Shown here: positions 12,600 through 36,500 of the stretch, one piece after another | How positions within the stretch are numbered: the stretch's first letter is position 1 | Layout: every line of letters starts with the position of its first letter | Source: Euglena gracilis | Taxonomy: Eukaryota | Length of the DNA stretch: 64,000 bases | Assembly (NCBI GenBank): GCA_039621445.1 | Contig: CP154954.1 | Location: forward strand, 25,866,954 to 25,930,953 | Direction of reading: 5' to 3' | The notes under the pieces: generated by a model | Databases searched by the model: none | What the model was told of the DNA's origin: nothing | Seen by the model: only the letters and a program-made list of their open reading frames with translations | Position numbers and translations under genes: made by a program

Positions 12600-15500
12600 T
12601 CCGGGACTGACTCCGCGCTCGTTGGAAGTGCGTTGCTGTTGCGCGTGTCGGTGTACGGCTCCGTCACCAGGCTGCCACCGTACTGGCACCAGGCTGGGCT
12701 TTCCGTGAATTTGTCTGAAAGGACAGATCAGGCGATTAATCGGGGTCGTTGAGCTCTTAGAGTTTCTTTAGAGTCATAGCGAAGCTTACCACCGGGGAAA
12801 AGGGGGGGGTAGAACCCCCCCTCCCCTGGGTGGGTATTGAAAACGGCGGATTGTCACCATGACCCCGACCTGGTTCCCAGGATTTTTTTCCCCAGCCGCG
12901 AGCGACTGGATCCCTGGATTCCAAATCAGTCCAATCCCTAGAATCCAATCCTCCTTTTGACCCCCAACTCCGCCAGGCCTGAGTTATTCACCCGAGCTAG
13001 GCCTCCCTCCTCCTTACATGCAAATTTGGCCCCCTTACAGTTCGCCTTCGACCTTTACACATGTCCACCAAAATTCTTAGCATGCAAACTTGGCCTCCAT
13101 AGGGTTGGCCCCCCTGGCCTTGTCTTCAACCAAGGCCCGGGCCAAGCGCCTGGAAGGGGGGTAGGGGGAGTCCCAGGCAAAGTATTGTTAATGAATACCG
13201 ACCAGGGCGTCGCTTAAGCCGAAGGACAGCCCGTGGGGGGGGGGGGGGCAGCAAGCCTGCAGCCCCAGCCAATGCCAAATTGCAGTTCCTGTCCAGCCGC
13301 CGGCATAGCGGACCCCCCCGGGGGGGGGGGGGGGGGTTGCTATGGGCAGGCAGGGTGGTAGGGCGCTTTCCACTTTACAGCGGACCTTACACCACGCTTT
13401 CAGCGGGCCGCCACCTCCAGCGGCGAGGGGTGCGCTTCTATTTGGACCCTAGCCGTGTGATTTTTGTTAATTTCCTTGAGACATCCAATCCAAATGGGGG
13501 GTGCGCATGTAGCGGACTGCCGCCTTCGGCGGTGGGTGGCGCGCTTTTACTTGGACCCTGCACTTGTAGCGTCCCCGTGCTTCTATTGGGGGGGGGGGGT
13601 TACAGTGCCTGCCCACAGGCACCCCTCCATGGGGGGGGGTCGGTTTTGGACCCCGGTGTTTGCTGACCAGGCCCATGTTCCCATGGAAATGGCCATTTTT
13701 GGCCCCGGTGCCTTCGGCGCCGGGGGTGTGCTAGAGCACTACCCGCAACCCACCCCAAAACCAACTCCAGGGGTGTGCACCCGTGCTTCTATTACGGGGG
13801 GGGGGGGGGGGGAGCACAAGACATCCCCCGGTCAAAAGAAGCCTGCTCACGGGCACTGGTTGTCCATCCCTGGGCAAATTCCCATGGGCCCTGCCTCTCC
13901 AGTCGAAAATCCCAGTCTTCTGAACACCACAGTGCAAGCGAACCGGCTTTGGACACAATGAACGCAGAGGTTAACAATGACTGGGTGGTCCGGCCAGCCA
14001 GCCAGTACCTGCGTTTTTTTTTTCCAGCCAGCAGCTCCCAGCCGGGCTGCGGAGCCCCTCACCCCACAGAGGTGCAATGGCCACAGGCACAGTCCCCAGC
14101 CATATTTCAAACCAAAGAAGGTTATGTGCCCTGACAGATTTCTGACCAAAGACGTCCGAAGGCTTTTCACCTGCTGGGTATTGTTGCTGAGATTGGAATG
14201 GGGTTTTCATGAACCGCGGTTAGACAAGAGCACTCACACCAGTGGGTACGCAGGAAATTCCTATGCTTTTGCTAATTTGTCTCATCCTCGCGAATTTTTG
14301 CATTTTGCAAACCCCATGGGTGTTGTTCCAGCTTTCGCTCAGAACCCCCAGGGTTGTGCTGAAATACTGTTTTGAAACCATCCCTCAAAAAATGGCAATG
14401 TCCATGTCGCCCTGTCGTGTGCACCATGTTCACCGTCCACATTGCACAAATGTGCAAAATGAAAGTTGTGCAAAGTGCAGTCATAACCCCCCATACACTC
14501 ATGTAAACAGGAGAAGATCGGCCATCAGGAATCAAGCTTCTGCTTGAGGGTTTGCCCCCTCGGAGGGGGCTGGACTGCAGCCAGTCTAAATTTGACCAGT
14601 GGAATTCTAGTGGACCGCCCCCTGGAAGGTCTGCTAGCAGGGCTCGCTGGTGGAAATTTTTACCAGTGACCGGCAAAGCGCCAAAAAATTTTGGACTCCC
14701 AAAATTTGCCAAAAATGCCCGTTTTTGGCCATTTTTGGGATTTTTGGGAACAAAAAAATCAGCCAAGACTTCATTTCCACCTCGGCGAACAGCGCCAGAA
14801 AAAATTTCCAGTTCGTGGGACCCCAGACCCCCCCAGCCAACACCCAACCCCCTTTTCCATCCCCATCTGGGCTGCGGATCCCCCGGAAATGAAATGAAAT
14901 GCTGAAATAAAGCTGGGTCCAGCCCAGCACTGGATCAAAAAAAAATCCGGCCCAAGGTGCCAAAAAAAAAATTTGAAAGGGGGTCAAGGATAGCCAAATA
15001 TGCCATTTTTGAATTTGGGTTTCACCTGAAAATATTTGCCAAACTTTTTGTGCACCCTTTTCCTGCTTCTGTCCCCGGTGTCCCTTCCGTGATGTGGCGT
15101 GGCCGGTGCGATCCCAACGGTGCCATTTCTCGCAGGTGGTCATGCCAGAGCCGCCCCCGCCTGACGGACCTGAGGGGACCGACCGACGGGGATCCTTTCG
15201 ACAGCCGGAAACCCTGGGGGCCGGCGTGGCACGCTGCTGTATTCCACTGCTTGAACTCCGCCACATTGCCTTGGCGCATCATTTGTATGTTTCGCATCAT
15301 TGATGTTTTTTGCGGGGTTTTTTTGTATGCATATTTGGGTGTGCCGTTCCACCCCCCCCCCCGGTGTTTGGGGGGCCTTCCCTCTCCCCCCCCCAGGTCT
15401 GGGGGTCTGGGGGAGGGGGGGGCGGCCCGGCAGGGTTCCCGCCTGGGGCTGGCGGGTCTGCAGGCAGCGGTGGACGACCTCGACCTCCGGGCGGTGGAGG

Positions 15501-33500: not shown

Positions 33501-36500
33501 AAACGGTTCGGCAGCACAAGGGATTTTGTTATTTTGGGGCCCTGGGGCAGTTGAGCAGCAAAAGGGATTCGCTTCCAAAACGGTTCGGCTACACAAGGGA
33601 TTTTGTTATTTTGGGGCCCTGGGACAGTTGAGCAGCAAAAGGGATTTGCTTCCAAAACGGTTCGGCAACACAAGGGATTTTGTTATTTTGGGGCCCTGGG
33701 GCAGTTGAGCAGCAAAAGGGATTCGCTTCCAAAACGGTTCGGCTACACAAGGGATTTTGTTATTTTGGGGCCCTGGGGCAGTTGAGCAGCAAAAAGATTT
33801 CGCTTCCAAAACGGTTCGGCAGCACAAGGGATTTTGTTATTTTGGGGCCCTGGGACAGTTGAGCAGCAAAAGGGATTCGCTTCCAAAACGGTTCGGCAGC
33901 ACAAGGGATTTTGTTATTTTGGGGCCCTGGGGCAGTTGAGCAGCAAAAAGATTTCGCTTCCAAAACGGTTCGGCAGCACAAGGGATTTTGTTATTTTGGG
34001 GCCCTGGGGCAGTTGAGCAGCAAAAGGGATTTGCTTCCAAAACGGTTCGGCAACACAAGGGATTTTGTTATTTTGGGGCCCTGGGACAGTTGAGCAGCAA
34101 AAGGGATTCGCTTCCAAAACGGTTCGGCTACACAAGGGATTTTGTTATTTTGGGGCCCTGGGGCAGTTGAGCAGCAAAAAGATTTCGCTTCCAAAACGGT
34201 TCGGCAGCACAAGGGATTTTGTTATTTTGGGGCCCTGGGGCAGTTGAGCAGCAAAAAGATTTCGCTTCCAAAACGGTTCGGCAGCACAAGGGATTTTGTT
34301 ATTTTGGGGCCCTGGGGCAGTTGAGCAGCAAAAGGGATTCGCTTCCAAAACGGTTCGGCTACACAAGGGATTTTGTTATTTTGGGGCCCTGGGACAGTTG
34401 AGCAGCAAAAGGGATTTGCTTCCAAAACGGTTCGGCTACACAAGGGATTTTGTTATTTTGGGGCCCTGGGGCAGTTGAGCAGCAAAAAGATTTCGCTTCC
34501 AAAACGGTTCGGCAGCACAAGGGATTTTGTTATTTTGGGGCCCTGGGACAGTTGAGCAGCAAAAGGGATTCGCTTCCAAAACGGTTCGGCAGCACAAGGG
34601 ATTTTGTTATTTTGGGGCCCTGGGGCAGTTGAGCAGCAAAAGGGATTTGCTTCCAAAACGGTTCGGCTACACAAGGGATTTTGTTATTTTGGGGCCCTGG
34701 GACAGTTGAGCAGCAAAAGGGAATCGCTTCCAAAACGGTTCGGCAACTCAATTTTTGCGGGGGGGGGGGGCTTAAAAAGTCGGTGACCCCCCCTTTTAGT
34801 ACATTAGAGTGGGTAGTCGGTCGACTAGTCGACCGACTACCCAGTTCCCCCCACCGACTAGTCGGTCGACTAGTAGTCGGTGAACTAGTCGACCGACTAG
34901 TCGGTCGACTACCCAGAACCCCCCCCCACTCTAAGTCGGTGAGCCGCTCAGGGGGATCACCAACGGCTGCAGCCATGCTCCCCTTGCCAAAAGGCTTCCA
35001 GCGCCATCCAGGGGGTGCCAGAGGTGTTTTCAAAGCCGCCTGTCGAGCATCCCTGCGAGCCTGGAAACTCAAACGCCAAAAGACATTGCTCGCGCTTGAA
35101 GTGGGGAAAGCTGTTGGCTAACCATGGTAACCATTTGCCCGACGTCTCCCTCACCTTTCAACCTTTCGTACAAATTGTTTAGATCTGATTTTTTAGAAGT
35201 TTCTTTTTCGGCCGCCACCCACAGCATCCACTGCATTTGCCCATGCACGCACACTCACGCTCACATATAGAGGCGGAAAGAGGAGGTTGTTAAAGTCAAA
35301 GTCCCAAGGGCTTTGTTTGGAAGGCTAAATTCCCTGGTCACAGTTTTTTTTTGAAAAAAGCTGTCAAAATATATTTCTCTAAGAAATGAAATTGAAACAA
35401 GAAGCAGTTGGCGGTGATTTTTATGTTGAAGAGATTTGTGATCAGAAAGACTCTGAATAAACGACGCAAGAGCACGCACCCACGCACACATGTACGCACA
35501 CACACACACACGTCAACCACACACACGTCAACCACACACACACACACACACACACCACACACGCCACACACAACACAACACAAACATAACTCAACACAAC
35601 TTAAATCAATTGAACACACGCACACAGCATCAGCAGGACGGTTAAAAGGATTTGAGGAACGAGAGAAGGCCAGACCCCTGGGCCAGGGGCTCACGCCCTG
35701 GCACAGGGTTCACGGCCTCCGCGGAGCCGTTCATGGCGGCGTTCCAGGCTTGCACCGCGGAGGCGTGGCTGTACCCGTGGTCCGACACGCCGTTCAGCAG
35801 CGACGACGAGCAGGAGCTGGCGTTCGTCGTGGCCGGGCCGCTGAAGGCCACGCCCCCCCTTCCCCAGCTCTCTGGCTCCCTCTCCCCATCCCGGTCGCGC
35901 CGACTGTCTGAGGCGTTGTAATTTGTGTGTGGGTCCATCAGGGCATGGGTTTGGGGTTGGGGTCCGTGTCGTCTCGGAAACATGGCCAGCCGTTGGGTTT
36001 CTCCGCCACGTCCCACTTCCGATCCGAAGACTTGGGCCGCTGACCTTCCATGAGCCACCATTTGAATGGTTAGCCCTCACAGACTTGTTTCCCGCCCGCC
36101 AACCCACACCGTCTCGAGACATGCACCGCCATCCAAGGACGCAAAGCCGAAGTCCCTCAAAATGCCAGCCAAATCAGCCCCCATTTTGAAGTTAGCCATT
36201 TGGGGATTACGGTGAGAGGAGGCACAGGAGACAATCAGTGGGGGCGTGCGGACGTCACGGGCTGATCGTGTGGTGGTCGCGGCGTTCTGTTTCAACTGCT
36301 GGATGTGAGAGCCAGGGGGATCCACAATCTGCAAGCAGCCGTCGGGGTTGAAGGGCAAACTCCCACAATTGCAATTGGTGTTTATTCTGAATGGATTATA
36401 TCTGCATATGTTCCCAATCGCCCGTTGTCCACAGATCACCCCATCGTCGCTGCTTTTGAATATTTTGGTTTTGAGGATGGTTATTTTGAATGAAATTTTA

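Follow-up and report, generated by a model that had tools for sequence, protein, structure and literature searches.

Nonconventional introns of euglenids have no GT-AG borders and carry CAG/CTG, or the derivatives CGG-CCG, CGG-CTG and CTG-CAG, at positions +4 to +6 and -8 to -6. Their spacers are 3 and 5-6 nucleotides (nt) long, their termini pair with each other, the next exon begins with a purine, and repeats at the borders make the junctions slidable (Milanowski et al. 2014, 2016; Nomura et al. 2025 for the splicing code). The Euglena splicing code has been defined genetically, and CAG/CTG-type bases are needed for splicing (PMC12501133). For the euglenid tubulin genes covered by PMC3935182, 15 nonconventional gains and no conventional gains have been reported. 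Intron 4 of gapC in Euglena agilis ACOI 323, which is also nonconventional and present in one lineage only, has an 8-nt direct repeat that is longer than those of older introns, and has been read as a recent gain (PMC4770533). In this study, we analyzed a 64,000-nt stretch of the Euglena gracilis nuclear genome (GCA_039621445.1, contig CP154954.1, positions 25,866,954 to 25,930,953 of the forward strand; hereafter the window, numbered from its first letter), in which two tandem genes contain 19 introns of this type, some at positions shared by both copies and others private to one copy. We consider it probable that most of the private introns were gained after the duplication, and not lost differentially from one of the copies.

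The CAG/CTG inverted ends, junction repeats resembling target-site duplications, the hypothesis of an origin from MITEs (miniature transposable elements with inverted repeats), the break-repair alternative, ongoing nonconventional gain and a recent intron's 8-nt repeat have all been published (PMC3935182, PMC4770533, PMC11282704, PMC12501133). The origin of these introns is debated between transposon insertion and break repair. The locus described here is a new example of a known phenomenon, and its evolutionary reading is plausible and moderately supported. The locus contributes the contrast of old and younger introns within one pair of paralogues, together with a register scan that singles out 8 nt. 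While the gapC case compares strains of one species, the present genes are old tandem paralogues (synonymous divergence, dS, about 0.87) in which shared and private introns stand side by side. Extended to every paralogue pair in a euglenid genome, such a comparison would yield a gain rate and a decay curve for target duplications, and would also test fixed-length target duplication against variable repair microhomology.

Two tandem genes and their introns

The locus consists of two paralogous genes in tandem on the plus strand, each with its own start, stop and transcript-derived protein. The coding sequence of copy 1 (15142..22466, ATG to stop) has ten exons and nine introns and encodes 224 amino acids; its exons lie at 15142-15202, 15447-15549, 16720-16836, 17176-17220, 18117-18153, 19367-19453, 20294-20323 (a 30-nt micro-exon), 21212-21272, 21917-21995 and 22412-22466. 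Copy 2 extends from an ATG at 25235 or 25274 to 36308 and has 11 exons and ten introns for 216-229 amino acids, with exons at 25235/25274-25280, 25796-25837, 26240-26292, 27590-27723, 28149-28193, 28644-28680, 30970-31024, 31370-31421, 34975-35005 (again a micro-exon), 35706-35845 and 36254-36308. Introns are numbered by copy below, from c1-I1 to c1-I9 and from c2-I0 to c2-I9; all are on the plus strand.

When one copy-1 exon translation was used as a query against eukprot, the E. gracilis protein EG_transcript_19837 (P0002, 224 residues) was the sole match among 41 candidates. Likewise, EG_transcript_20991 (P0001, 216 residues) was the sole match of one exon translation among 16 candidates. 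A combination of tblastn and an exhaustive junction search placed P0002 on 15142-22466 and P0001 on 25274-36308. A third protein, EG_transcript_38323 (P0003), maps to copy 2 and has a longer N-terminus that reaches up to the ATG at 25235. The spliced open reading frames (ORFs) of the window are complete and differ from the transcript proteins at two residues in copy 1 and five in copy 2. RNA was mapped on 19753-32854, a stretch chosen clear of a (GT)178 array and a 77-bp array, using two contig sets (X1 and X2) and two same-species raw-read runs (X12 and X16). Copy 1 has an in-frame stop at 22464-22466, beyond which an X1 contig extends to 22789 as a 3' untranslated region (UTR), and copy 2 starts with a separate 5' exon, whose end is at 25280. 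No joint between copy 1 and copy 2 is among the 15 RNA joints listed (15 of 169). The first-pass annotation had described a duplicated domain within one gene. Because of the separate start and stop codons, the two transcript-derived proteins, the 3' UTR contig and the complete spliced ORFs, we regard the locus as two genes; the unit reaches 36308, and not 35845 as had been proposed.

The two copies are indeed collinear and diverged, as that annotation had recognized: tblastx detected seven collinear exon pairs, and blastn between the halves gave only two matches, both of them exonic, with no intron similarity between the copies. The proteins are 49.8% identical (103/207 aligned residues), and the codon alignment gives a proportion of synonymous differences (pS) of 0.51 and a nonsynonymous divergence (dN) of 0.41.

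All 19 introns are missing from the transcript-derived proteins, and none has GT/GC-AG borders in any phase allowed by these proteins (18 examined by script and c2-I0 by its RNA joint, where the skipped ends are AC..CT). Nine junctions were observed in RNA at the predicted bases (c1-I7, c1-I8, c1-I9, c2-I0, c2-I1, c2-I2, c2-I4, c2-I5 and c2-I6); the basis for copy-1 introns 1-6 and copy-2 introns 7-9 is the transcript proteins. The strict Euglena code, N3-CDG...CH'G-N5-6|R, is followed by 12 of the 19 introns (63%), close to the 61.2% given for E. agilis (PMC12501133). Five more are in-register variants with compensated or wobble pairs or altered spacing (CAA-TTG, CAC-GTG, CAG-TTG, CTG-CGG and one with 3+4 spacers). 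Two introns at the 5' end of copy 2, c2-I0 and c2-I1, are out of register altogether and are both spliced in RNA. In the +4/-6 register, 16/19 introns pair over most of the first 12 positions, the exceptions being c1-I4, c2-I0 and c2-I1. Duplexes of the 30-nt ends range from -19 to -35 kcal/mol in 18/19 introns, with c2-I0 the weakest at -13.7 kcal/mol; their mean is -26.7 kcal/mol compared with -21.6 (standard deviation 6.5) for mismatched ends, a control that discriminates moderately, the ends all being GC-rich. Apart from the five variants and the two out-of-register introns, there is no difference in kind from known euglenid nonconventional introns. Intron density is 9 per 224 codons in copy 1 and 10 per 216-229 codons in copy 2, close to the one intron per 25 codons estimated earlier.

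Shared and private positions and the 8-nt flanks

According to the codon alignment, six intron positions are shared. Four pairs are equal in column and phase, a fifth is identical relative to conserved T-A-S-A-E codons, and the sixth (c1-I6 and c2-I7) agrees within 0-1 nt. The first shared pair comprises c1-I3 (16837..17175, 339 nt, phase 2, CGG...CCG-N5|G) and c2-I3 (27724..28148, 425 nt, phase 2, CGG...CTG-N5|G), the latter placed by P0001 and P0003, with no joint of its own among the 15 listed. It is followed by c1-I4 (17221..18116, 896 nt, phase 2), where CAG...CTG is accompanied by spacers totalling 7 instead of 8, and c2-I4 (28194..28643, 450 nt, phase 2, CAG...CTG-N5|A; RNA joint 28192>28643). 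The third pair is c1-I5 (18154..19366, 1213 nt, phase 0), a wobble case with CTG...CGG in which 11/12 terminal positions pair, and c2-I5 (28681..30969, 2289 nt, phase 0, CAG...CTG-N5|G), whose RNA joint 28677>30967 slides by 4 and was found in X1, X2, three X12 reads and five X16 reads. Then c1-I6 (19454..20293, 840 nt, phase 0, CTG...CAG-N5|G) and c2-I7 (31422..34974, 3553 nt, CGG...CTG-N5|A) each precede a micro-exon (20294-20323 and 34975-35005, respectively). For c2-I7 the basis is the P0001 mapping, and its micro-exon matches at 8/10 residues. The next pair, c1-I7 (20324..21211, 888 nt, phase 0) and c2-I8 (35006..35705, 700 nt, phase 0, placed by P0001), both CAG...CTG-N5|G, have nearly identical 3' ends; the c1-I7 joint 20319>21208 slides by 5 and is present in X1, X2, four X12 reads and two X16 reads. 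The last pair consists of c1-I9 (21996..22411, 416 nt, phase 2, CAG...CTG-N5|A; RNA joint 21995>22412) and c2-I9 (35846..36253, 408 nt, phase 2), a compensated CAC...GTG-N5|G variant mapped by P0001. The ends of shared pairs are slightly more alike than those of unrelated pairs (mean 19.8 vs 17.6 of 48, p 0.022).

Only three shared positions had been described by the first-pass annotation. One of its borders, after TAA (18153/28680), was right; the border after ED(P/A) (16811/27698) had been set 25 nt too early in both copies, the true one being 16836/27723, and that after E(L/V)A.R (~19469/31432) lay 16 and 11 nt too late compared with 19453/31421. The single intron proposed at the last of these sites is really two introns around the 30/31-nt micro-exon, and the proposed ends CCTGGCAC(C/A) hold for the introns ending at 21211 and 35705. 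The exons 17176-17220 and 28149-28193 had been overlooked, as had the micro-exons 20294-20323 and 34975-35005, the last shared intron (21996-22411 and 35846-36253) with the final exon of each gene, and, in copy 2, the intron 25281-25795. The general pattern, in which all introns are nonconventional and some positions are shared while others are private, was real and carefully observed, and the gene structure was misread.

Five introns are unambiguously private, with gap-free alignment and the other copy contiguous at the site. Two of them are in copy 1. c1-I2 (15550..16719, 1170 nt, phase 2, CAG...CTG-N5|G), supported by a P0002 junction, has a flank repeat of 7/8, and copy 2 is collinear without gaps across the site. 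c1-I8 (21273..21916, 644 nt, phase 1) has wobble ends CAG...TTG and an RNA joint at 21271>21916 that slides by 3 (X1, X2, four X12 reads and one X16 read); the contiguity of copy 2 at its site is backed by the copy-2 transcript. The other three are in copy 2. c2-I1 (25838..26239, 402 nt, phase 1) has an atypical register with an offset terminal stem, and its joint 25835>26238 slides by 2 (X1, X2 and three X12 reads). c2-I2 (26293..27589, 1297 nt, phase 0), a compensated CAA...TTG-N5|G variant with a flank repeat of 5/8, shows a joint without sliding at 26292>27590 (X1, X2, two X12 reads and one X16 read). c2-I6 (31025..31369, 345 nt, phase 1, CAG...CTG-N5|G) has a 7/8 flank repeat and a joint at 31023>31369 that slides by 4 (X1, X2, two X12 reads and three X16 reads). 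RNA contigs cover c1-I8, c2-I2 and c2-I6 at a low depth (2-9).

Two further introns lie in an N-terminal stretch that aligns poorly. c1-I1 (15203..15446, 244 nt, phase 1, CGG...CCG-N5|G, flank repeat 3/8), which has a unique P0002 junction, is either private to copy 1 or the counterpart of c2-I0 (25281..25795, 515 nt, phase 1), which lacks CDG/CHG in register and has weak terminal pairing. The two are in the same phase and 6 nt apart relative to conserved L-A-x-L-Q codons. The RNA joint of c2-I0, 25280>25797 with one extra C that we read as T>C at 25796, occurs in X1, X2 and two X12 reads, and the junction agrees with the N-termini of P0003 and P0001. Counting these two, 5/7 private introns lie within the first 55 codons.

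Spliced alignment of P0002 and P0001 to the genome bears out all six copy-specific introns proposed earlier. Four of them have RNA joints (those of c1-I8, c2-I1, c2-I2 and c2-I6, each with one X1 contig, one X2 contig and 3-5 raw reads). The borders proposed for 15550-16719, 21273-21916, 26293-27589 and 31025-31369 are exact, and 25837-26238 falls in the sliding range from 25836-26237 to 25838-26239. The intron given as 15199-15450 exists, with borders that were 4 nt off at each end.

For the 17 introns in register, we then used the inverted-repeat bases as anchors and scored identity between two flanks of length L, one ending just before the 5' motif and the other starting just after the 3' motif. 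Among the 12 registers from L = 3 to 14, an excess of flank identity was observed only at L = 8 (64/136 matches, where mismatched pairs gave 0.347; z 3.35, p 0.001 by permutation), and it persisted when the two best-scoring introns were removed (50/120, p 0.03). Taken as a class, the private introns matched at 26/40 positions (p 5e-5) and shared introns at 38/96 (p 0.17). A Mann-Whitney test of private over shared introns gave p 0.033 (5 v 12), or p 0.059 when the two atypical introns were included in their splice register (7 v 12). The two best repeats (7/8) belong to c1-I2 and c2-I6, and no shared intron exceeds 5/8, just as the first-pass annotation had noted. A flank-repeat signal of fixed length, 8 nt, adjoining terminal inverted repeats is found in these introns, and is strongest in the private ones.

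The degraded CAG that had been ascribed to shared introns was not seen: 9/12 shared introns fit the splicing code compared with 3/7 private ones. Accordingly, of the earlier proposal of ongoing gain with decay of both target-site duplications and terminal inverted repeats, the contrast in flank repeats between private and shared introns stands, while the inverted-repeat ends do not decay. The CAG/CTG ends do not decay with intron age, which would follow if selection maintains these bases as splicing signals and agrees with their published role in splicing (PMC12501133).

Origin of the private introns

If most private introns were gained after the duplication, the common ancestor would already have had six nonconventional introns, inherited by both copies. 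Copy 1 would then have acquired 15550-16719, 21273-21916 and probably 15203-15446, and copy 2 would have acquired 25838-26239, 26293-27589, 31025-31369 and probably 25281-25795. The likely mechanism would be that short, MITE-like DNA elements with inverted repeats inserted and duplicated 8 nt of the target. Euglenid nonconventional splicing would repair the transcript: the intron ends would pair, +4 to +6 CDG with -8 to -6 CHG, and with one cut 3 nt upstream of the 5' motif and the other 5 nt downstream of the 3' motif, the element would be removed together with one repeat copy.

Several lines of evidence favor gain. Gain after the duplication, followed by decay of the repeats, would leave a repeat signal in private and not in shared introns, and the two classes do differ in the identity of their 8-nt flanks. 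Gain is also more parsimonious, requiring seven events compared with 14 for loss. Intron loss mediated by reverse transcripts is expected to show a 3' bias, and the clustering of the private introns toward the 5' end does not have it. In addition, frequent nonconventional gain is already in the published record, as in the tubulin genes and the strain-specific gapC intron mentioned above.

On the other hand, several points weigh against this reading. The poorer fit of private introns to the splicing code is the opposite of what would be expected if young means intact, and none of the private introns matches any other sequence of the window. At a pS of 0.51, a repeat as old as the duplication could, by a rough estimate, still score 7/8 in roughly one of ten cases, so the two 7/8 introns alone do not date the insertions. 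The class comparison involves 5-7 versus 12 introns, and the anchor positions of introns missing the strict motif were set by hand, guided by the pairing register. A single ancestral intron may underlie c1-I1 and c2-I0. Moreover, the direction of change is drawn from the two copies and not from the gene structure of an outgroup, and any single private intron may have been lost from its sister copy. A search of metagenome contigs for outgroup relatives using a two-protein alignment pattern gave 595 matches, none confirmed by tblastn, and a protein search for such relatives, in which 8000 candidates were scored, retrieved only the three E. gracilis proteins.

Of the alternatives, differential loss survives best, and we judge it unlikely. 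It supposes an ancestor with about 12-13 nonconventional introns, three or four of which were lost precisely from each copy after duplication. At each private site the copy without the intron is precisely collinear, which suits loss as well as gain, and the code fit of the private introns, which is no better than that of shared ones, and their lack of recognizable sister copies in the window are also compatible with it. Such an ancestor would have had a 14-nt exon between the sites of c2-I2 and c1-I2, which would be unusual and not impossible, given the micro-exons of 30-31 nt in the present genes. However, loss needs seven earlier gains plus seven losses where seven gains suffice, and introns of equal age should have equally eroded 8-nt flanks, contrary to the difference between private and shared introns described above. 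The 5' clustering and the many nonconventional gains in published euglenid surveys (PMC3935182, PMC4770533) also speak against it.

A second alternative accepts gain and attributes it to double-strand-break repair with filler DNA, the flank repeats being repair microhomology (the proposal of Milanowski et al. 2016). The authors of PMC4770533 favored this explanation for the recent gapC intron with its 8-nt repeat, and it fits the finding that none of the private introns has a multi-copy family in the window. It nevertheless appears improbable here, given that the signal occupies one fixed 8-nt register adjoining a short inverted repeat, with none at L = 3-7 and 9-14. A fixed repeat length beside inverted ends is the mark of target duplications made by a transposase, whereas repair microhomology is expected to vary in length.

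Still less probable is intron sliding, in which c1-I1/c2-I0 (6 nt apart) and c1-I2/c2-I2 (14 nt apart) would each be one ancestral intron with moved borders. The common phase of c1-I1 and c2-I0 and their uncertain alignment leave some room for it at that pair. As to the other pair, c1-I2 sits 14 nt downstream of the c2-I2 site, and we treat these as two sites and not one slid intron because the sequence separating them is homologous coding sequence (10/14 identical), which copy 1 carries upstream of its intron and copy 2 downstream of its own; besides, 14 is not divisible by 3. The introns of either near pair resemble each other at their ends no more than unrelated introns do (8+10 and 8+6 of 48). 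Finally, a single gene with an internally duplicated domain and both halves in one reading frame, for which the common strand, tandem order and collinear homology might be cited, is virtually untenable in view of the in-frame stop and 3' UTR of copy 1, the separate 5' exon and ATG of copy 2, the two proteins of 224 and 216 residues and the lack of a joint between the copies among those listed.

Returning to gain after duplication, the 7/8 repeats of c1-I2 and c2-I6 present the same picture as gapC intron 4, and other mobile elements offer further comparisons. Introners, transposon-derived introns of other protists, are created when an inverted-repeat element inserts and duplicates its target, and one copy of the repeat leaves with the intron (PMC11282704). 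They differ from the present introns in forming recognizable multi-copy families and being spliced by the spliceosome; the introns described here have only a few terminal bases in common and are removed by other machinery. Elements of the hAT (Ac/Ds) type make 8-bp target-site duplications and have short terminal inverted repeats beginning C/TAGGG (PMC3942097, PMC3260210). The 8-nt flank register and the CAG...CTG ends of our introns, several of which read CAGGG...CCCTG, resemble hAT elements and MITEs. Unlike these, no transposase, subterminal repeats or multi-copy family was seen in the window, where no search aimed at a transposase was made. The resemblance amounts to 3-5 bases that are also needed for splicing, and excision here takes place at the RNA level. 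The likeness to hAT is a lead and not a membership.

It is possible, though doubtful, that nonconventional introns are insertions of a DNA-transposon lineage that duplicates 8 bp and has CAG(GG)...(CC)CTG ends, the pair of features that is a hallmark of hAT. On that assumption, the 3-nt and 5-nt splice offsets would exist because 3 + 5 = 8; the splicing cuts would remove the element and exactly one target copy, amounting to precise excision at the RNA level. At least two insertions (c1-I2 and c2-I6, with the near-identical targets GCCCTGCC and GCCATGCC) would then be younger than the duplication. No paper linking nonconventional introns to hAT was found by a full-text search or by term look-ups in PMC3935182 and PMC11282704.

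Protein family, transcripts and repeats in the window

The encoded proteins, about 220 amino acids long, belong to an unnamed family, and their function is no part of the intron argument. P0001 matched no Pfam family, and P0002 had one sub-threshold match (GGDEF_2, 18.7 bits vs a cut-off of 24.5). Against PDB, the sequence profile gave nothing better than E 0.57. An AlphaFold2 model (mean predicted local distance difference test score, pLDDT, 43.3) was too poor for fold searching, and the best Atlas score, 0.82, was under the level where chance matches stop. A HMMER search over 1.84 billion representatives returned six proteins at E <= 0.001, namely P0001-P0003 and three distant ones (P0004, P0005 and P0006) from Logan/ENA contigs outside the window. 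These have a C-terminal block in common with the E. gracilis proteins, ending at the invariant Asn of the N-C-Y of copy 1, with N-C-W or N-S-W in 4/5 aligned proteins. P0005 also has an inserted ubiquitin-family domain (26.8 bits vs a cut-off of 25.4). Elsewhere in the window, self-tblastx revealed only low-complexity matches and no further duplicated genes, and Rfam had no matches across its whole length. A scan of the intergenic stretch for bacterial promoters and terminators, which has no bearing on a eukaryote, scored below shuffle expectation.

Within c2-I0, just upstream of copy-2 exon 2, the stretch 25755-25795 reads M-A-D-P-P-P-P, comparable to the start of copy 1 (M-P-E-P-P-P-P) and in another frame. 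Judging from this sequence, the stretch may be what remains of an ancestral first exon that gave way to the present upstream exon; copy-1 exon 1 did not score above shuffles against copy-2 DNA at 25755-25795 or 25262-25293 (score 19, p 0.135).

The P0003 transcript retains c2-I4: its protein passes the 5' border of this intron and stops inside it (28194-28266), which indicates an intron-retaining or unspliced form of copy 2. At the 3' end of copy 1, reads of the stranded run lie on the minus side, which we read as plus-strand RNA. There are many single-base differences between the window and the RNA runs or transcript proteins (at 25796, 22469-22709 and others), suggesting strain or allelic variation; T>C at 25796 turns Val into Ala at the first copy-2 junction.

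Several introns contain repeats. The (GT)178 array occupies 16052-16407 in c1-I2, a (TG)168 array lies just after copy 2 at 36518-36853, and shorter CA/GA arrays occur in other introns. Inside c2-I7, a 77-bp unit is repeated 24.6 times at 32855-34745 (95% matches), with long open frames on both strands only through the repeat. A 37-nt piece of c2-I1 (25980-26016) is matched by RNA contigs to a depth of about 14,000 and by some 100 raw reads in each run; because the reads continue into unrelated sequence on both sides, it is shared with a highly expressed or repeated locus elsewhere. Summed RNA-contig depth also reaches hundreds to about 12,000 at 28930-30240, 31552-32425, 19753-20189, 22812-23248 and 24123-24559, and these stretches mark dispersed repeats in introns and between genes. 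The first of them, at about 28930-30240, is a high-copy repeat in c2-I5, parts of which have diverged copies at 31884-32078, 12778-12994 and 24417-24528.

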